A stretch of DNA of 5,706 nucleotides, from positions 1 to 5,706 of the IMG/VR virus record IMGVR_UViG_2690316184_000001. One strand, 5' to 3'. This stretch comes from a virus (Duplodnaviria; Heunggongvirae; Uroviricota; Caudoviricetes). Positions 1 to 5,706 of this stretch are shown here, piece after piece. The notes under the pieces were generated by a model. It ran no database searches. It had not been told where the DNA came from and saw only the letters and a list, made by a program, of their open reading frames with translations. How positions within the stretch are numbered: position 1 is the stretch's first letter; each line of letters opens with the position of its first letter. The position numbers were made by a program, and so were the translations under genes.

Positions 1-58
1 AGCGGGCTTGTAATGGGTTAAGTGATAACAGATGTCTGGAAATATAGGGGCAAATCCA
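1..58 (+). mobile_element. Right terminal end of an IS2-like (IS3-family) insertion sequence; the element body lies beyond the left edge of the window
   Basis: Positions 18-58 (TTAAGTGATAACAGATGTCTGGAAATATAGGGGCAAATCCA) match the IS2 right inverted repeat as I recall it. Lambda int homology on the - strand stops exactly at 59, directly abutting the repeat end. Only 58 bp are visible, so identity rests on the terminal repeat alone. Confidence 0.65.
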
Positions 59-208
59 CTGTATAGCTTCAGTGATTGCGATTCGCCTGTCTCGGCCTAA
101 TCCAAACTCTTTACCCGTCCTTGGGTCCCTGTAGCAGTAATATCCATTGTTTCTTATATAAAGGTTAGGGGGTAAATCCCGGCGCTCATGACTTCGCCTT
201 CTTCCCAT
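59..208 (-). pseudogene. int: Integrase Int, 5' fragment only (codons 1-50), truncated by the IS insertion
   Basis: The - strand translation from ATG at 208..206 reads MGRRRSHERRDLPPNLYIRNNGYYCYRDPRTGKEFGLGRDRRIAITEAIQ, the lambda Int N-terminus as I recall it. The start lies 23 bp inside the 3' end of xis, as in lambda. After codon 50 the sequence becomes the IS2-like terminal repeat. Confidence 0.85.
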
Positions 209-404
209 TTCTGATCCTCTTCAAAAGGCTACCTGTTACTGGTCGATTTAAGTCAACCTTTACCGCTGATTCGTGGAACAGATACTCTCTTCCATCCTTA
301 ACCGGAGGAGGGAATATCCTGCACTCGCGTACCCATCGACGAACTGTTTCAAGGCTTCTTGGGCGTCGCTGGCGTGCGTTCCACTCCTGAAGTGTCAAGT
401 ACAT
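186..404 (-). CDS. xis: Excisionase Xis (72 aa)
   Basis: Six-frame ORF 186..404 (-) translates to MYLTLQEWNARQRRPRSLETVRRWVRECRIFPPPVKDGREYLFHESAVKVDLNRPVTG..LLKRIRNGKKAKS, essentially lambda Xis from memory. The classic 23-bp xis/int overlap is present. Confidence 0.95.
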   Translation of the reverse strand: MYLTLQEWNARQRRPRSLETVRRWVRECRIFPPPVKDGREYLFHESAVKVDLNRPVTGSLLKRIRNGKKAKS

Positions 405-431
405 CGCAAAGTCTCCGCAATTACACGCAAG
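390..431 (-). promoter_or_regulatory. pI promoter region with CII activator site (TTGC-N6-TTGC) overlapping the xis start codon
   Basis: The - strand reads TTGCGTGTAATTGCGGAGACTTTGCGATGTACTTGACAC. Direct repeats TTGC (430..427) and TTGC (420..417) are separated by 6 nt, the CII recognition architecture. The xis ATG (404..402) falls in the -10 region, consistent with the known pI transcript that makes Int but not Xis. Confidence 0.65.
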
Positions 432-452
432 AAAAAACCGCCATCAGGCGGC
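432..452 (-). terminator. Intrinsic-terminator-like hairpin on the - strand, immediately upstream of the pI CII site
   Basis: The - strand transcript reads G-CCGCC-UGAU-GGCGG-UUUUUU: a 5-bp all-GC stem, 4-nt loop and U6 tract. The short stem limits confidence. Confidence 0.4.
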
Positions 453-699
453 TTGGTGTTCTTTCAGTTCTTCAATTCGAATATTGGTTACGTCTGCATG
501 TGCTATCTGCGCCCACAGCATCCAGTGGTCATAGCAGTCGCTGATGTTCTCGGCTTCGATAACTCTGTTGAATGGTTCTCCATTCCATTCACCTGTAACT
601 CGGAAGTGCATTTATCATCGCCATAAAACAAAACTCGCCGTAGCGAGTTCAGATAAAAGAAATCCCCGCGAGTGCGAGGATAGTTACTTGTTCATATTA

Positions 700-981
700 T
701 TAATCGTCAATGTATTTTGAGCATTGTGGGCAATCATCGATCCCACAATACGATTCATATGCATCCTTTATTGCGTCGCGGGCTTCAGTAAGAGTATTGA
801 ATAAGTTGCAGCTATTATCTTTTTGATATAGGTAAGTTCCTAATTTATAAGCAGAAGAAGCATCATTTCCGCTGTCTAAAATTACATCGTTATGGATTCT
901 GCACCTTGCAAGAACTCCTGATCCCATAAGGGTCTGCATAGCCCATTGCTCTTGATCTTCACACAAATCATGAATGCTCAT
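700..981 (-). CDS. ea8.5: Ea8.5-like small Cys-rich protein (93 aa from ATG at 981)
   Basis: ORF 700..999 (-); the preferred start is ATG 981..979, preceded by GAGAGGTGTTGAA (SD-like GAGG). The 93-aa length and the 295-bp spacing to xis both match lambda ea8.5 as I recall the reference coordinates. The C-terminus is Cys-rich (CGIDDCPQC), consistent with a small zinc-binding protein. Confidence 0.7.
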   Translation of the reverse strand: MSIHDLCEDQEQWAMQTLMGSGVLARCRIHNDVILDSGNDASSAYKLGTYLYQKDNSCNLFNTLTEARDAIKDAYESYCGIDDCPQCSKYIDD

Positions 982-1080
982 TTCAACACCTCTCTTCACG
1001 TTTCACACACGTTAAGATTAACAGTGTTTTTACATGCTTTGGGAGATTTATTTTATAAAAACTCTTTTAATACAAATAGA

Positions 1081-1100
1081 TATAATAGTTCACTATTATA
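1081..1100. repeat. Perfect inverted repeat TATAATAG-N4-CTATTATA overlapping the stop codon of the DUF550/DUF551 gene, inside an AT-rich intergenic spacer (982..1095)
   Basis: Arms 1081-1088 and 1093-1100 are exact reverse complements. The stem would be all A/T, so it is a weak RNA hairpin; a protein-binding palindrome or a recombination-junction relic is equally possible. Confidence 0.5.
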
Positions 1101-1893
1101 GCTCCTTTAATCGAGGCGGTTCTGGTAGAGGCATCCAGTGGGTTACACCGCCAATTGGCTCATCGTCGTCGTACTCCAATGCGGCTATATAGAACCCGTC
1201 ACGACGAGAATAAGAAATCCCGGACATTACAATGCCATCCGAAACAACAATAATGTCACCCGTTTCTTTCGGCATTCGCTCACTACAGCTTATCCAACCA
1301 TCCGGAGTCACCGGAAGCGAGAACGGCAGCACATCTCTGTGAACAAGTTTTTGCTGTGACAGGTTATCCAGAACTTTCTGTACTGCTGCATCACCGAATA
1401 CACCAAGCGCATCTGCCATAACTCCTACAACCTGATAAGCCTCAGCGCATACCGTGGATAAACCATCCGGAATTACCGGAGAGTTGCCGGGTTCTTTAAT
1501 GTGCAAGCGAGGCTCACCATCTTTTGGTTCAGGCCACTGGCGCTCCATGTTGATCTTCAATTTATCTTCCATAGCAGCGGTAATTTCAGCATCGCTGATG
1601 CCAGCACGGCGCTGTGCATCCCACAACAGGAAATGCATATCAGCCCACTCGCTGAGATCGTCTGGTTCGGCTGCGGCTTCCAGAGCCTCTTTTGAGAGGT
1701 GTTTCAGTGGACCAATGGGGCCAACGCAGCCAAATGTGGAGTCAGACCATTTGGCATGCTCGTGGCGAATCAGTTCGCGTTCCAGTGATGCCAGTGCAAT
1801 TCGTGCCAGTTCCATTTGTTCGCCACGAGTAAGCCCGTTTTCAAGCGGATTTTTAATGAACAATTCAATACGTTCTTTGGTAATAGTGGTCAT
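1096..1893 (-). CDS. Two-domain phage protein: N-terminal MazG-like all-alpha NTP pyrophosphohydrolase (DUF550 type, dATP/dGTP pyrophosphohydrolase family) plus C-terminal DUF551-type domain (265 aa)
   Basis: ORF 1096..1893 (-), ATG 1893..1891 preceded by AAGGACTAACAA (SD AAGGA). The N-terminal half carries the MazG-type acidic motif EALEAAAE...EWADMHFLLWD. The C-terminus ends ...GGVTHWMPLPEPP, the signature I associate with DUF551. Assignment is from motif recall, not a search. Confidence 0.6.
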   Translation of the reverse strand: MTTITKERIELFIKNPLENGLTRGEQMELARIALASLERELIRHEHAKWSDSTFGCVGPIGPLKHLSKEALEAAAEPDDLSEWADMHFLLWDAQRRAGISDAEITAAMEDKLKINMERQWPEPKDGEPRLHIKEPGNSPVIPDGLSTVCAEAYQVVGVMADALGVFGDAAVQKVLDNLSQQKLVHRDVLPFSLPVTPDGWISCSERMPKETGDIIVVSDGIVMSGISYSRRDGFYIAALEYDDDEPIGGVTHWMPLPEPPRLKEL

Positions 1894-1903
1894 TTGTTAG
1901 TCC

Positions 1904-2659
1904 TTAAACTGCTAGTTGCAATTGCATTTCAAAGCGGTCGCGTTGTTCACAATACGCAAGAGAACCAGGGCTATTGTGTGCCTCAATCCGTTCTACCATT
2001 AATGCTGCGCGTGTCTCTTTACTTGCAGGTGCATAAGCCCCAGACCAGGCTTTATCAATACCGATGTTTCGAGCGACGTTCGTACTATCTGCGCTGGCTA
2101 AGGGTAATTTTGTGAATATCAGCGGATTTAACATGCGCAATCCATGTAGTTTCGTAACCGGCTGACCATGCCCATCAACAATGTGACGAATCAGGTCTTT
2201 CATTCTGGCTACCGCAAGAGTTGGGCGCTTTACGTCATAGTCGCCACAACTACCGATAGCCACTCGCGGAAACTCATTGCACAAATGAATAAATCGCGCG
2301 TCACTTTCATTCATGTGCCACACTGGAACGCCAGCTAGTTTTCCGTGAGGCCACTCATTCAGAAGCGCATCATTTTCCTCCTCTCCGCCATCAATAATAT
2401 CCGGGATAATGGCAAAATCGAATCCTGGGTGATTCTTCCAGCGAGCAACAAACTCGTAGTAATCGCTCCAGTCGATTTTGTTTTTGCCAGCTGCTTTCCA
2501 GGCGGTGAATGCACCGTTGTCCAGCGCGAACGACTGACAGTATTCAGCCGCGAGATTGATCTGGCCTGAATGCGCAAAACTGATAAACGCATGTCGCCCT
2601 TTCCATGCTCTCATTGCGCACGTATCAGGAGTAATAGGCCCACCGTGGTAGTGAATCAT
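1904..2659 (-). CDS. tRNA-guanine-transglycosylase-fold protein lacking the Zn subdomain; candidate DpdA-like DNA 7-deazaguanine transglycosylase (251 aa)
   Basis: ORF 1904..2701 (-); the preferred start is ATG 2659..2657, preceded by AAAGGAGAGTGAG (SD AGGAGA), one nt after the upstream gene's stop. Three motifs resemble the TGT catalytic core: ALDNGAF (cf. TGT LTDSGGFQ), GFDFAIIPDII (cf. GSDIVMIFDEC) and ADSTNVARNIG (cf. FDCVMPTRNARNG, nucleophile Asp). There is no C-terminal CxCxxC...H zinc motif. Function is inferred from these motifs only. Confidence 0.5.
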   Translation of the reverse strand: MIHYHGGPITPDTCAMRAWKGRHAFISFAHSGQINLAAEYCQSFALDNGAFTAWKAAGKNKIDWSDYYEFVARWKNHPGFDFAIIPDIIDGGEEENDALLNEWPHGKLAGVPVWHMNESDARFIHLCNEFPRVAIGSCGDYDVKRPTLAVARMKDLIRHIVDGHGQPVTKLHGLRMLNPLIFTKLPLASADSTNVARNIGIDKAWSGAYAPASKETRAALMVERIEAHNSPGSLAYCEQRDRFEMQLQLAV

Positions 2660-2660
2660 C

Positions 2661-3068
2661 TCACTCTCCTTTGATGCGAATGCCAGTAGCGCGGATTGCA
2701 TCGATGACTTCAGAAACTTTGTATGCCATTACCGTTTGGTAATCATCGTGAAAATCTGTTCGATGAAGCATGCTGCTACGTTCCGGGAGCAGTATTTCCC
2801 GCGCTTCCAGTTCTGCAATGCGCTTTTTTGCTGCTTCCAGTTCATCCAGTAATTCCAGCACGGTAGCCGGATTAGCCTTGGCAACAAAATCCCGGACTGG
2901 CTTACAATCAATCTCCGCAATGGGTTGATTCGATGTGTAGCCATGCTGTCTTGTATAACTACCGTGACGAATAACGAAAAAATCACCATTTATTTTTTTA
3001 GCCTGCCACTTATCTTCACCGGCTTTCTCTGCCGCTTCACGCAGTGCCTGAGAGTTAATTTCGCTCAC
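2661..3068 (-). CDS. Ea22-like family protein (135 aa), shorter than the 182-aa lambda Ea22
   Basis: ORF 2661..3068 (-). The ATG (3068..3066) overlaps the orf73 stop (ATGA coupling). The N-terminus MSEINSQALREAAEKA and a coiled-coil-like stretch LELLDELEAAKKRIAELEAR resemble prophage proteins annotated ead/Ea22-like. The gene occupies the position of ea22 in the lambda gene order. Confidence 0.55.
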   Translation of the reverse strand: MSEINSQALREAAEKAGEDKWQAKKINGDFFVIRHGSYTRQHGYTSNQPIAEIDCKPVRDFVAKANPATVLELLDELEAAKKRIAELEAREILLPERSSMLHRTDFHDDYQTVMAYKVSEVIDAIRATGIRIKGE

Positions 3069-3286
3069 TTCGAACCTCTCTGTTTACTGATAAGCTCCAG
3101 ATCCTCCTGGCAACTTGCACAAGTCCGACAACCCTGAACGACCAGGCGTCTTCGTTCATCTATCGGATCGCCACACTCACAACAATGAGTGGCAGATACA
3201 GTCTGGTAGTTCAGACGACGCATTTTTATTGCTGTGTTGCGCTGTAATTCTTCAATTTCTGATGCTGAATCAATGATGTCTGCCAT
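3065..3286 (-). CDS. orf73: TraR/DksA-family C4 zinc-finger protein (73 aa), lambda Orf73-like
   Basis: ORF 3065..3286 (-), MADIIDSASEIEELQRNTAIKMRRLNYQTVSATHCCECGDPIDERRRLVVQGCRTCASCQEDLELISKQRGSK. It has two Cys pairs (C-C-E-C ... C-R-T-C) about 17 residues apart, and the 73-aa size and position match lambda orf73, a known TraR homolog. Confidence 0.75.
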   Translation of the reverse strand: MADIIDSASEIEELQRNTAIKMRRLNYQTVSATHCCECGDPIDERRRLVVQGCRTCASCQEDLELISKQRGSK

Positions 3287-3341
3287 CTTCCATTAATCCC
3301 TGAATTGTTGGTTAATACGCTTGAGGGTGAATGCGAATAAT

Positions 3342-3363
3342 AAAAAAGGAGCCTGTAGCTCCC
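3342..3363 (-). terminator. Intrinsic-terminator-like hairpin between the orf61-region ORF and orf73
   Basis: The - strand transcript reads G-GGAGC-UACAG-GCUCC-UUUUUU-AUUAUU: a 5-6 bp GC-rich stem, 5-nt loop and U6 tract. Confidence 0.5.
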
Positions 3364-3384
3364 TGATGATTTTGCTTTTCATGT

Positions 3385-3666
3385 TCATCGTTCCTTAAAG
3401 ACGCCGTTTAACATGCCGATTGCCAGGCTTAAATGAGTCGGTGTGAATCCCATCAGCGTTACCGTTTCGCGGTGCTTCTTCAGTACGCTACGGCAAATGT
3501 CATCGACGTTTTTATCCGGAAACTGCTGTCTGGCTTTTTTGATTTCAGAATTAGCCTGACGGGCAATGCTGCGAAGGGCGTTTTCCTGCTGAGGTGTCAT
3601 TGAACAAGTCCCATGTCGGCAAGCATAAGCACACAGAATATGAAGCCCGCTGCCAGAAAAATGCAT
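3385..3666 (-). CDS. Small pL-operon protein in the lambda orf61 position; start codon uncertain (ATG 3666 gives 93 aa, ATG 3600 gives 71 aa starting MTPQQENALR...)
   Basis: ORF 3385..3666 (-). The internal ATG at 3600..3598 overlaps the stop of a 27-codon hydrophobic ORF (ATGA), suggesting the shorter form may be the translated one. The frame that lambda annotates as orf61 (by my coordinate recall) hits TGA at 3669..3667 here, so the gene structure may differ from the reference. Confidence 0.55.
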   Translation of the reverse strand: MHFSGSGLHILCAYACRHGTCSMTPQQENALRSIARQANSEIKKARQQFPDKNVDDICRSVLKKHRETVTLMGFTPTHLSLAIGMLNGVFKER

Positions 3667-3676
3667 TCAGTGGTTG

Positions 3677-3868
3677 TCATACCTGGTCTCTCTCATCTGC
3701 TTCTGCTTTCGCCACCATCATTTCCAGCTTTTGTGAAAGGGATGCGGCTAACGTGTGAAATTCTTCGTCTGTTTCTACTGGTATTGGCACAAACCTGACT
3801 CCAATTTGAGCGAGGCTATGTGCCATCTCGATACTCGTTCTTAACTCAACGGGAGATGCTTTGTGCAT
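3677..3868 (-). CDS. orf63: Lambda orf63-like small protein (63 aa)
   Basis: ATG 3868..3866, translation [63 protein letters not shown]. It is 192 bp, the same length as lambda orf63, with a 28-bp overlap with orf60a as in lambda. The frame is open further upstream to ATG 3883, so the start is not certain. Confidence 0.7.
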   Translation of the reverse strand: MHKASPVELRTSIEMAHSLAQIGVRFVPIPVETDEEFHTLAASLSQKLEMMVAKAEADERDQV

Positions 3869-4026
3869 ACAGCCCCCCCCCATTTATTATTTATCTCCTC
3901 AGCCAGCCGCTGTGCTTTCAGGGGATTTCGGATTACAGAAAGGCCGGGAAATACCCAGCCTCGCTTTGTAACGGAGTAGACGAAAGTGATTGCGCCTACC
4001 CGGATATTATCGTGAGGATGCGTCAT
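3841..4026 (-). CDS. orf60a: Lambda orf60a-like small protein (61 aa here; 60 aa in reference lambda by my recollection)
   Basis: ORF 3841..4032 (-); the preferred ATG is 4026..4024, which overlaps the exo stop (ATGA) as in lambda. Translation is [61 protein letters not shown]. Confidence 0.7.
3873..3881. repeat. Homopolymer tract C9 (G9 on the coding strand) inside orf60a, just upstream of the orf63 start
   Basis: Nine consecutive C at 3873-3881, read directly. The tract encodes the W-G-G of orf60a and doubles as a G-rich SD for orf63. Confidence 0.9.
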
Positions 4027-4703
4027 CGCCATTGCTCCCCAAATACAAAACCAATTTCAGCCAGTGCCTCGTCCATTTTTTCGATGAACTCCGGCACCAT
4101 CTCGTCAAAACTCGCCATGTACTTTTCATTCCGCTCAATCACGACATAATGCAGGCCTTCACGCTTCATGCGCGGGTCATAGTTGGCAAAGTACCAGGCA
4201 TCTTTTCGCGTCACCCACATGCTGTACTGCACCTGGGCCATGTAAGCCGATTTTATTGCCTCGAAACCACCGAGCCGGAATTTCATGAAATCCCGGGAGG
4301 TAAACGGGCATTTCAGTTCAAGGCCGTTGCCGTCACTGCATAAACCATCGGGAGAGCAGGCGGTGCGCATATTTTCGTCGCGATAGATGATCGGGGATTC
4401 AGTAATATTCACGCCGGAAGTGAATTCAAACAGGGTTCTGGCGTCGTTCTCGTACTGTTTTCCCCAGGCCAGCGCCTTAGCATTAACTTCCGGAGCCACA
4501 CCGGTGCAAACCTCAGCCAGCAGGGTGTGGAAGTAGGACATTTTCATGTCAGGCCACTTCTTTCCTGAGCGGGGCTTTGCTATCACGTTGTGAACTTCTG
4601 AAGCGGTGATGACGCCGAGCCGTAATTTGTGCCATGCATCATCCCCCTGTTCGACAGCTCTCACGTCGATCCCGGTACGCTGCAGGATAATGTCCGGTGT
4701 CAT
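4023..4703 (-). CDS. exo: Lambda exonuclease (Red alpha, Exo), 226 aa, apparently intact
   Basis: ORF 4023..4703 (-), [65 protein letters not shown]...GFVFGEQWR. This is full-length lambda Exo from memory. The ATG overlaps the bet stop (GCATGA). Confidence 0.97.
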
Positions 4704-4899
4704 GCTGCCACCTTCTGCTCAGTGGCTTTCTGTTTAAGGAATCCAAGAGCTTTCACTGCTTCGGCCTGTGTCAGTTCTGACGATGCGCGAATGTCGCGGC
4801 GAAATATCTGGGAACAGAGCGGCAATAAGTCGTCATCCCATGTTTTATCCAGGGCGATCAGCAGAGTGTTAATCTCCTGCATGGTTTCATCGTTAAGGG
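4700..4899 (-). pseudogene. bet: bet (Red beta) 3' remnant: only the last ~66 codons remain, and no in-frame ATG precedes the internal Met at 4882
   Basis: The - strand frame reads ...[67 protein letters not shown], the Beta C-terminus. Upstream of about 4899 the sequence switches to the gam 5' end, and an in-frame stop lies at 4927..4925. Confidence 0.85.
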
Positions 4900-5045
4900 G
4901 GGTAGTGAATGCTTTTGCTTGATCTCAGTTTCAGTATTAATATCCATTTTTTATAAGCGTCGACGGCCTCACGAAACATCTTTTCATCGCCAATAAAAGT
5001 GGCGATAGTGAATTTAGTCTGGATAGCCATAAGTGTTTGATCCAT
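4893..5045 (-). CDS. kil: Kil (host cell-division inhibitor), 50 aa here with the C-terminus altered by the deletion junction (47 aa in lambda by recollection)
   Basis: ATG 5045..5043 preceded by CAGGAGTCCCAAAAA (SD AGGAG). Translation is MDQTLMAIQTKFTIATFIGDEKMFREAVDAYKKWILILKLRSSKSIHYPP*. There is a 32-bp overlap with the cIII 3' end, as in lambda. The 92-aa six-frame ORF 4893..5171 is this frame extended upstream through cIII in another frame. Confidence 0.8.
   Translation of the reverse strand: MDQTLMAIQTKFTIATFIGDEKMFREAVDAYKKWILILKLRSSKSIHYPP
4903..4947 (-). pseudogene. gam: gam 5' remnant: first 15 codons (MDINTETEIKQKHSL), then out-of-frame fusion to bet 3' sequence (29-codon ORF in total)
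   Basis: ATG 4947..4945; the - strand reads ATG GAT ATT AAT ACT GAA ACT GAG ATC AAG CAA AAG CAT TCA CTA, then CCCCCC TTAACGATGAAACC, which is bet-derived. The gam frame terminates at TGA after 29 codons. Confidence 0.85.
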
Positions 5046-5178
5046 TTTTTGGGACTCCTGGCTGATTAAGTATGTCGATAAGGCGTTTCCATCCGTCACG
5101 TAATTTACGGGTGATTCGTTCAAGTAAAGATTCGGAAGGGCAGCCAGCAACAGGCCACCCTGCAATGGCATATTGCAT
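5014..5178 (-). CDS. cIII: CIII (FtsH inhibitor that stabilises CII), 54 aa
   Basis: ATG 5178..5176 preceded by AAGGAGCACACC (SD AAGGAG, 6-nt spacing). Translation is MQYAIAGWPVAGCPSESLLERITRKLRDGWKRLIDILNQPGVPKNGSNTYGYPD*, lambda CIII from memory. It is absent from the six-frame track because it is shorter than 60 aa. Confidence 0.9.
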   Translation of the reverse strand: MQYAIAGWPVAGCPSESLLERITRKLRDGWKRLIDILNQPGVPKNGSNTYGYPD

Positions 5179-5204
5179 GGTGTGCTCCTTATTTATACAT
5201 AACG

Positions 5205-5227
5205 AAAAACGCCTCGAGTGAAGCGTT
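5205..5227 (-). terminator. Intrinsic-terminator-like hairpin between ea10 and cIII (at the position I would expect lambda tL3; name tentative)
   Basis: The - strand transcript reads AACGCUUC-ACUC-GAGGCGUU-UUUCG: about an 8-bp stem with one G.U pair and a 4-nt loop, with the run of U beginning inside the 3' arm. Confidence 0.4.
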
Positions 5228-5250
5228 ATTGGTATGCGGTAACGCCGCGC

Positions 5251-5619
5251 TCAGGCGGCTTTGATAGTCATATCATCTGGATCAAATATTCCTGATGTAT
5301 CGATATCGGTAATTCTTATTCCTTCGCTACCATCCATTGGAGGCCATCCTTCCTGACCATTTCCATCATTCCAGTCGAACTCACACACAACACCATATGC
5401 ATTTAAGTCGCTTGAAATTGCTATAAGCAGAGCATGTTGCGCCAGCATGATTAATACAGCATTTAATACAGAGCCGTGTTTATTGAGTCGGTATTCAGAG
5501 TCTGACCAGAAATTATTAATCTGGTGAAGTTTTTCCTCTGTCATTACGTCATGATCGATTTCAATTTCTATTGATGCTTTCCAGTCGTAATCAATGATGT
5601 ATTTTTTGATGTTTGACAT
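5251..5619 (-). CDS. ea10: Ea10-like protein (122 aa)
   Basis: ORF 5251..5619 (-), ATG preceded by TATGAGGATATGAATAG (SD GAGGA). The 122-aa length and the 72-bp spacing to cIII both match lambda ea10 by my coordinate recall. Confidence 0.8.
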   Translation of the reverse strand: MSNIKKYIIDYDWKASIEIEIDHDVMTEEKLHQINNFWSDSEYRLNKHGSVLNAVLIMLAQHALLIAISSDLNAYGVVCEFDWNDGNGQEGWPPMDGSEGIRITDIDTSGIFDPDDMTIKAA

Positions 5620-5639
5620 CTATTCATATCCTCATAGAT

Positions 5640-5667
5640 AAAAAATCGCCCTCACACTGGAGGGCAA
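5640..5667 (-). terminator. Strong intrinsic terminator on the - strand upstream of ea10 (lambda tL2-region terminator; name tentative)
   Basis: The - strand transcript reads UU-GCCCUC-CAGUGU-GAGGGC-GA-UUUUUU: a 6-bp GC stem, extendable to 8 bp with U.G and U-A pairs, a 6-nt loop, and U6 directly after the stem. Confidence 0.6.
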
Positions 5668-5706
5668 AGAAGATTTCCAATAATCAGAACAAGTCGGCTC
5701 CTGTTT

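Follow-up and report, generated by a model that had tools for sequence, protein, structure and literature searches.

Several small, single-helix proteins of the Escherichia coli inner membrane, including YohP (27 aa), KdpF (29 aa), MgtS (31 aa) and AcrZ (49 aa), work by binding to membrane proteins larger than themselves. Small hydrophobic proteins that annotation has missed are a known kind, and overlooked small ORFs are common. Hydrophobic peptides are also found among the type I toxins, such as TisB (29 aa), DinQ (27 aa), ShoB (26 aa) and Ibs (19 aa), which are produced from their own transcription units under the control of antisense RNAs and which usually contain basic residues. A third kind of short reading frame is the relay or leader ORF of translational coupling, whose start and stop codons overlap the neighbouring genes (ATGA), which precedes a weak downstream Shine-Dalgarno (SD) sequence, and which normally shows no constraint at the amino-acid level.

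Here we describe a 27-codon ORF in a lambda-like phage that has features in common with each of these groups. The window, that is, the whole stretch of 5,706 nucleotides that was analysed (positions 1 to 5,706 of IMG/VR record IMGVR_UViG_2690316184_000001), represents the exo-xis part of the pL operon, with the genes on the minus strand (Table 1). Between positions 3300 and 3960 its identity is 97.6% to lambda (NC_001416) and 99.5% to phage PhiR11_1. Our preferred reading, to which we assign a probability of roughly 0.7, is that the small ORF would be a genuine, overlooked gene of the pL early operon, coupled to orf63 or to a methylase gene and encoding a membrane peptide.

Table 1. Reading frames around the small ORF and the pairing signals at the competing start codons. 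SD strength is given as the duplex energy with the 16S 3' end (anti-SD), for which the background mean is -2.65 kcal/mol.
Feature	Position	Strand	Basis or remark
exo	4703..4023	-	
orf60a	4026..3841	-	
orf63 (DUF1382), gene upstream of the small ORF	3868..3677	-	Pfam PF07131, 3e-31
Small ORF, 27 codons, MTTTECIFLAAGFIFCVLMLADMGLVQ	3680..3597	-	ORF list and sequence
orf61 proper, 71 aa (MTPQQENALR...KER)	3600..3385	-	PGAP and CPT start; L084-type loci; omega ~0.24
Alternative 93-aa reading of orf61 (MHFSGSG...)	ATG 3666, stop 3385	-	
22-codon N-terminal extension of the 93-aa orf61 (MHFSGSGLHILCAYACRHGTCS)	3601..3666	-	judged spurious
31-codon ORF, 31 aa (MNMKSKIIRELQ...)	3388..3293	-	ATG overlaps orf61 stop (ATGA)
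orf73	3286..3065	-	
Start of small ORF	3680	-	purine run GAGAGAGA at 3687..3694 (-), 6 nt before ATG; -5.6 kcal/mol, weak SD-like
Start of 71-aa orf61	3600	-	GGGA, 7 nt; -3.9 kcal/mol, weak
ATG of 93-aa reading	3666	-	13 nt, distance unusable; -3.8 kcal/mol
ATG annotated in lambda	3696	-	14 nt, distance unusable; -4.9 kcal/mol

The preliminary description of this locus had proposed a 27-codon ATG frame that overlaps a gene at either end and has a 16-residue hydrophobic core, and the small ORF was recovered exactly in this form. Its ATG (3680-3678) overlaps the TGA of orf63 (3679-3677), giving ATGA at 3680-3677, and its own TGA (3599-3597) overlaps the ATG at 3600-3598 with which orf61 opens, giving a second ATGA at 3600-3597. 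The same kind of junction had been claimed for other places in the operon; exo/orf60a and bet/exo do have it, but orf73 and the Ea22-like gene meet at a GTGA. An ATGA overlap likewise joins orf61 to the 31-codon ORF.

The hydrophobic core runs from C6 to A21. Among all 16-residue windows in the 178 six-frame stop-to-stop segments of the window it ranks first in hydrophobicity, and when the nucleotides of the small ORF were shuffled, the frame was open and equally hydrophobic in 0.015% of trials (1.5e-4). The core has a mean KD value of 2.81 and a Hessa-scale sum of -3.4 kcal/mol, and a 21-residue window that includes Asp22 scores -0.14 kcal/mol. At 16 uninterrupted residues the hydrophobic stretch is short for a transmembrane helix; it extends up to V26, or to 21 residues, if Asp22 is taken in. 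The peptide contains neither Lys nor Arg, its sole charges being Glu5 and Asp22, and the positively charged flank expected from the positive-inside rule was looked for in the peptide and is absent. It seems somewhat more probable than not that the product is a membrane-embedded peptide with a single predicted hydrophobic helix. Since it has no Lys or Arg it would give no tryptic fragments and be invisible to standard tryptic proteomics, which, if the peptide is made, would account for its absence from proteomics.

In its size, its one predicted hydrophobic helix, its lack of an enzymatic domain and its omission from annotation, the small ORF product resembles proteins of the YohP, KdpF, MgtS and AcrZ type. 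It differs from them in having no basic flanks, in lying in a phage early operon and in overlapping both of its neighbours; it has no sequence similarity to any family, and its membrane location is predicted. With the type I toxin peptides it shares length and hydrophobicity, and it is potentially membrane-depolarising. The other hallmarks of these toxins are absent, however, and expression of the small ORF would instead occur via coupling in the pL mRNA. No promoter-like site was found within 3560-3720 on either strand, no antisense promoter or terminator was found inside the small ORF, and no Rfam family matches it. The sole promoter-like match in 3200-4100, at 3312-3341 on the plus strand, is at chance level.

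Another comparison is the 31-aa ORF of the same operon, which is probably the 'orf2313' identified by ribosome profiling of lambda (PMC8614690). The two ORFs are alike in size, in their ATGA overlap (at 3388 for the 31-aa ORF) and in having long been unannotated in the lambda RefSeq record, although the 31-aa ORF carries annotation in PhiR11_1 and phage 434. The 31-aa ORF has a different sequence, which is only partly hydrophobic, and according to the account in PMC8614690 it has ribosome-profiling support, whereas the 27-aa ORF is known from sequence alone. The 31-aa ORF also holds a terminator-like hairpin, AGGGAGCTACAGGCTCCTT followed by a T-run, at 3346-3364 (minus strand), which matches 't2', a terminator predicted to lie between orf61 and orf73 (Bloch et al. 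2014).

All three frames are open across the 84 bases of the small ORF, so openness is uninformative and the test must be evolutionary. We therefore compared about 200 IMG/VR loci, together with reference records. The loci were collected in two ways, by the 71-aa protein and by a DNA pattern within orf61 that takes no account of the small ORF. For the small ORF itself, the sample comprised 210 loci with 29 haplotypes and 28 distinct variant events; the loci all derive from Escherichia lambdoid phages and are at least 90% identical, so that the diversity is shallow. In the small-ORF frame, the events fall 7, 5 and 16 times on codon positions 1, 2 and 3, and 15 are synonymous and 13 nonsynonymous, against an expected synonymous share of 23.5% (p=5.6e-4, omega ~0.27). 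When the same bases are read in the frame of the 93-aa orf61, the distribution is 16, 7 and 5, with 6 synonymous and 22 nonsynonymous events (expected synonymous 22.2%, p=0.61, omega ~1.05), and in the third frame it is 5, 16 and 7, again with 6 and 22 (expected synonymous 20.5%, p=0.53, omega ~0.95). The pattern-sampled loci alone gave p=3.3e-4 for the small-ORF frame. Calibration on the same loci returned omega values of ~0.24 for the 71-aa orf61 and ~0.7 for orf63.

The more frequent variants show the same picture: of seven polymorphisms that occur in five loci or more, six are synonymous in the small-ORF frame and none in the 93-aa frame. Site 3669 carries three alleles, with G in the majority, T in 65 and A in 42 of 191 loci; in the small-ORF frame these read ACT, ACG and ACA (T, G and A alleles, respectively), all of which encode Thr4, whereas in the annotated orf61 frame of lambda they read TGA, GGA and AGA, that is, stop, Gly and Arg. 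The small ORF is intact in 209 of the 210 loci and one codon shorter in the exception (Q27 to stop, with the junction TAATG). Its 13 nonsynonymous variants are mostly rare and conservative (T3A, E5K, F8L, A21S/V, D22N/G and V26I/A). An indel allele, H76, was set aside as a probable assembly error, since all but one of the annotated genes there are marked as frameshifted. When the 93-aa ORF served as the query of a protein search, most of the matches were near-identical E. coli copies with frameshifts and not true distant relatives.

The preliminary description had left the choice between the small ORF and the overlapping frame to their conservation among related phages, and across the 210 loci it is the small-ORF frame that shows codon-periodic variation and a synonymous excess, with none in the long orf61 frame. 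Judged by this variation, the small ORF is under purifying selection at the amino-acid level, and it is likely a translated gene. Conservation of an untranslated stretch, either as an RNA or DNA element (a structure or binding site) or merely because the loci share a recent ancestor, would be in keeping with the identity of at least 90% among all loci, much of which shared ancestry does explain. Three-base periodicity of the variation is, however, unexpected for an RNA or DNA element. Moreover, the RNA folds worse than its shuffles (z=+2.4) and there is no Rfam match in the region, so that structure fails to explain the constraint, and we attach almost no weight to this explanation.

The overlapping gene, orf61, needs to be considered alongside the small ORF. 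It had been observed that the frame from ATG 3696, the annotated orf61 start in lambda, meets a TGA at 3669-3667 and has AAA as its in-frame codon at 3513-3511, and either a difference from lambda at two positions or an error in the reference call had been offered as the explanation. Alignment with NC_001416 shows that both differences are real (T3669 against G, and a run of six A residues, A6, against A7), and both halves of the alternative apply: the phage differs from lambda at two sites, and the reference orf61 call is, for part of its length, very probably not the translated frame. The A6 run lies at 3540-3535 (minus strand), and the A7 run of lambda in the 30861-30867 region. A6 is present in 185 of 193 loci, and A7 in five, namely two lambda records and three IMG/VR contigs. 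With A7 the frame runs into a TAA, which yields the annotated 61-aa product; with A6 it continues to ...GMLNGVFKER. Given A6 in 185 of 193 relatives against A7 in lambda, the orf61 of lambda is, on this comparison, a frameshifted and truncated allele. Its product has been noted previously as one that 'appears to be truncated', and it models as unstructured (PMC8614690). Directly after the premature stop of lambda lies a 7-aa ORF, MTFAVAY, which may be the 'orf2311' from ribosome profiling.

As annotated, lambda orf61 is a composite of 32 codons that run out of frame through the small-ORF region, 23 codons of the real orf61 and 6 codons after the frameshift, and over the first 32 codons the reference call is very probably not the frame that is translated. 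Neither the start codon nor the frame of the annotated gene (NP_040613) is conserved among relatives: more than 36 loci have AAC at the equivalent of the ATG at 3696, and in 65 a TGA follows this position in frame. The small ORF sits within the annotated gene (30839..31024), at complement(30925..31008), in a different reading frame. Both this lambda product (NP_040613, PHROG 26061) and the 93-aa Orf61 of Stx phages (PHROG 303) are thus read from the same nucleotides as the small ORF in another frame.

If the 93-aa reading were the true orf61, the small ORF would be an untranslated overlapping frame. The longer frame is open in all loci, and many pipelines call it (on ~997 contigs, and for example as vb_24B_7c). 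Against it, its 22-codon extension evolves as neutral sequence, with 16 of the 28 events at first codon positions of that frame, and no SD lies at a usable distance. The published models are also at odds over its N-terminus, with AlphaFold and RoseTTAFold disagreeing on residues 1-23 of the 93-aa protein (PMC8614690). The start of the 71-aa form is the one called by PGAP in E. coli RefSeq genomes and by the curated phage 434 record (CPT), both of which leave a 76-base gap where the small ORF lies. PGAP names the 71-aa protein 'cell division protein ZapA'; the only support found for this was a Pfam ZapA match of 16.1 bits (E=0.014), below the cutoff of 23.8, with no NCBIfam match, and the name looks like an over-annotation. 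Other records name it 'putative membrane protein' or 'putative Xis'.

Because recombination between lambdoid genomes takes place at gene boundaries, the junctions in them are informative. Three types of junction were seen around the small ORF. In about 21 loci (L008-type), a 185-aa Dam-like methyltransferase takes the place of orf63, and identity to the window resumes exactly at the small-ORF ATG, which again overlaps the upstream TGA (ATGA) and is preceded by GGGAGG (-10.3 kcal/mol). In about 11 loci (L084-type), a 250-aa gene stands in place of both orf63 and the small ORF, and orf61 begins with MTIEHNNALRS, 7 bases past the upstream stop and with its own GAGG. Because orf61 is present in these loci where the small ORF is not, it can do without the small ORF, and because it begins at the equivalent of 3600, these comparisons place the true orf61 start at 3600, with a product of 71 aa. 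The replacing gene is itself a mobile mosaic module: a 250-265-aa gene of this kind (MIH[FY]HGGPITPDTCA...) lies in the window at 1904-2701 (minus strand), downstream of the Ea22-like gene, the same gene lies at 1241-1993 in L084, and in other phages it stands where orf63 and the small ORF would be.

The third type is a single locus, L213 (Escherichia sp. E1V33), in which the small ORF is cut by the junction with a DndB-like gene and has lost its start and first ~7 codons. A 14-nt deletion was considered here and rejected, since on realignment the break proved to be a recombination junction within the small ORF. An ATG with an SD before it lies in the orf61 frame of L213 and creates a 93-aa fusion, which speaks for the longer reading of orf61. 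Even here, though, when read in the small-ORF frame the differences in the shared stretch (CTG>CTA, GCA>GCG and A11V) are synonymous or conservative, and in the 93-aa frame they are nonsynonymous; the L213 variant was found in none of the 5,426 complete E. coli genomes. Taking these points together with the start of the L084-type genes, we regard the 93-aa reading as highly improbable.

The start and stop overlaps of the small ORF are retained in both the orf63 and the Dam contexts. All loci have ATGA, GTGA or TAATG at its 3' junction; in ten of them orf61 starts with GTG, and the small-ORF TGA still overlaps it (GTGA). This anatomy fits termination-reinitiation from orf63 through the small ORF to orf61, and it is from the arrangement of the codons that we infer coupling. 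It also resembles that of relay ORFs, which raises the possibility that the small ORF is translated only so that ribosomes leaving orf63 reach the weak start of orf61, with the peptide as a degraded by-product. Such a role would suit a frame that always lies directly upstream of orf61 and overlaps both of its neighbours, an orf61 SD that is weak in the window (-3.9 kcal/mol) and stronger where the small ORF is absent (-5.6 kcal/mol), and the occurrence of orf61 without the small ORF. A relay needs just an open frame, however, and leaves its peptide free to vary, whereas the small ORF avoids changes of amino acid as strongly as orf61 does (omega 0.27 against 0.24). The extreme hydrophobicity is, in addition, very unlikely by chance and is retained by the substitutions seen. 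Because of this amino-acid-level constraint, a relay function alone is disfavoured, and we consider it unlikely.

Under the preferred reading of a coupled gene for a membrane peptide, ribosomes ending orf63, or the Dam-like methylase gene in other mosaics, would terminate at the TGA that overlaps the small-ORF ATG and restart there. They would then make the 27-residue peptide, free of Lys and Arg, and stop at the TGA overlapping the orf61 ATG, and this termination would pass ribosomes on to the 71-aa orf61, whose own SD is weak. The released peptide, one hydrophobic helix with acidic ends, would most likely partition into the inner membrane, where, as a small membrane protein, it may act on a target of the host. 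Our best guess would be modulation of a host inner-membrane protein, or a mild perturbation of the membrane early after induction.

Ribosome profiling of lambda (Liu 2013), as related in PMC8614690, found orf61 to be expressed, and in that account the 7-aa and 31-aa ORFs are the sole additions in the region. As the small ORF lies wholly inside the annotated lambda orf61, its footprints would have been credited to orf61, and reads over 'orf61' cannot separate the two frames. Expression attempts with Orf61 led to insoluble aggregates.

The 101-base region is common in E. coli, being present in 3144 of 5426 complete genomes (4259 copies), and it occurs in 176 phage records. Among GTDB species representatives it is confined to Escherichia, apart from lambda contaminant contigs. 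Low-coverage contigs that match the region were found in assemblies of Shewanella, Bradyrhizobium, Pseudomonas, Paenibacillus, Kitasatospora and others (L214-L227 among them). One of these (L214) carries the A7 allele of lambda, the remaining contigs of this type share the same 214-nt match, and some are ~48 kb long; they are almost certainly contamination with lambda control DNA. The record MW057783, 'Campylobacter phage CJLB-4', matches the window here as closely as lambda does (97.6% identity).

The description of the small ORF as unannotated stands for the lambda RefSeq record, for PGAP-annotated E. coli genomes and for curated phage records (it was absent from the 60 phage records sampled), but the peptide does exist as automatic calls: the exact sequence is a 'hypothetical protein' (UniRef A0A0A2SGE8) on 981 contigs. 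No family for it was found in Pfam, NCBIfam, PHROGs or PADLOC. Matches to MtrF and to PHROG 21538 were discarded as insignificant matches between hydrophobic sequences. The peptide string was found neither in about 8 million full texts nor in the small-gene supplements for Sakai (EHEC).

Other parts of the window also differ from lambda. It is without 958 bp of the lambda sequence (32222-33179), the junction lying at window position 4895/4896, and the deletion takes ~200 N-terminal codons from bet and leaves almost nothing of gam. The remainder of bet is a C-terminal ORF of 60 codons (4882..4700), still ATGA-coupled to exo and with kil directly upstream; PhiR11_1, otherwise the closest relative, has a Bet gene annotated at this place that extends past the compared stretch. 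Upstream of orf63, a G9 homopolymer at 3869-3877 (minus strand) forms the SD region, where lambda has GAGGGG and PhiR11_1 has G8; the length of the G-run differs among relatives. A T in the window upstream of orf63 makes an additional ATG (3883). The cIII thermoregulator (Rfam Lambda_thermo) is found at 5133-5191 (minus strand, 88.5 bits), as expected for a lambda-like pL operon.

The phenotypes that have been attributed to orf61 and the exo-xis region include effects on lysogenisation, effects on host survival and a block of the host cell cycle. The lambda delta-orf61 deletion (30839..31024) takes out the small ORF as a whole together with the final 20 bases of orf63, and the Phi24B delta-orf61 deletion, made on the 93-aa call (vb_24B_7c), removes small-ORF codons 6-27. 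As these published deletions also hit the small ORF, their phenotypes are not assignable to Orf61 alone, and those of the lambda deletion may owe more to the small ORF, the real orf61 being frameshifted there. Expression of degP and htpX is lower in infection with Phi24B delta-exo-xis than with the wild type (PMC10789677), and this envelope-stress signature in the presence of an intact exo-xis region is a weak, indirect hint at a membrane peptide. That the peptide, and not Orf61, causes at least part of the phenotypes credited to 'orf61' and the exo-xis ('bin') region is a speculative suggestion that we hold to be more doubtful than probable by a wide measure; it would apply especially to lambda, with its frameshifted orf61.

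Shiga-toxin phages carry the exo-xis block, and lambda serves as the reference among temperate phages. Should the small ORF prove to be a gene, the lambda map would gain a conserved early gene. The orf61 entry of lambda would then have to show a frameshifted 71-aa gene, of which a 29-codon remnant is left, with a 27-codon gene before it, which would be a useful correction to a reference genome, and the published genetics of orf61 would need to be read again.
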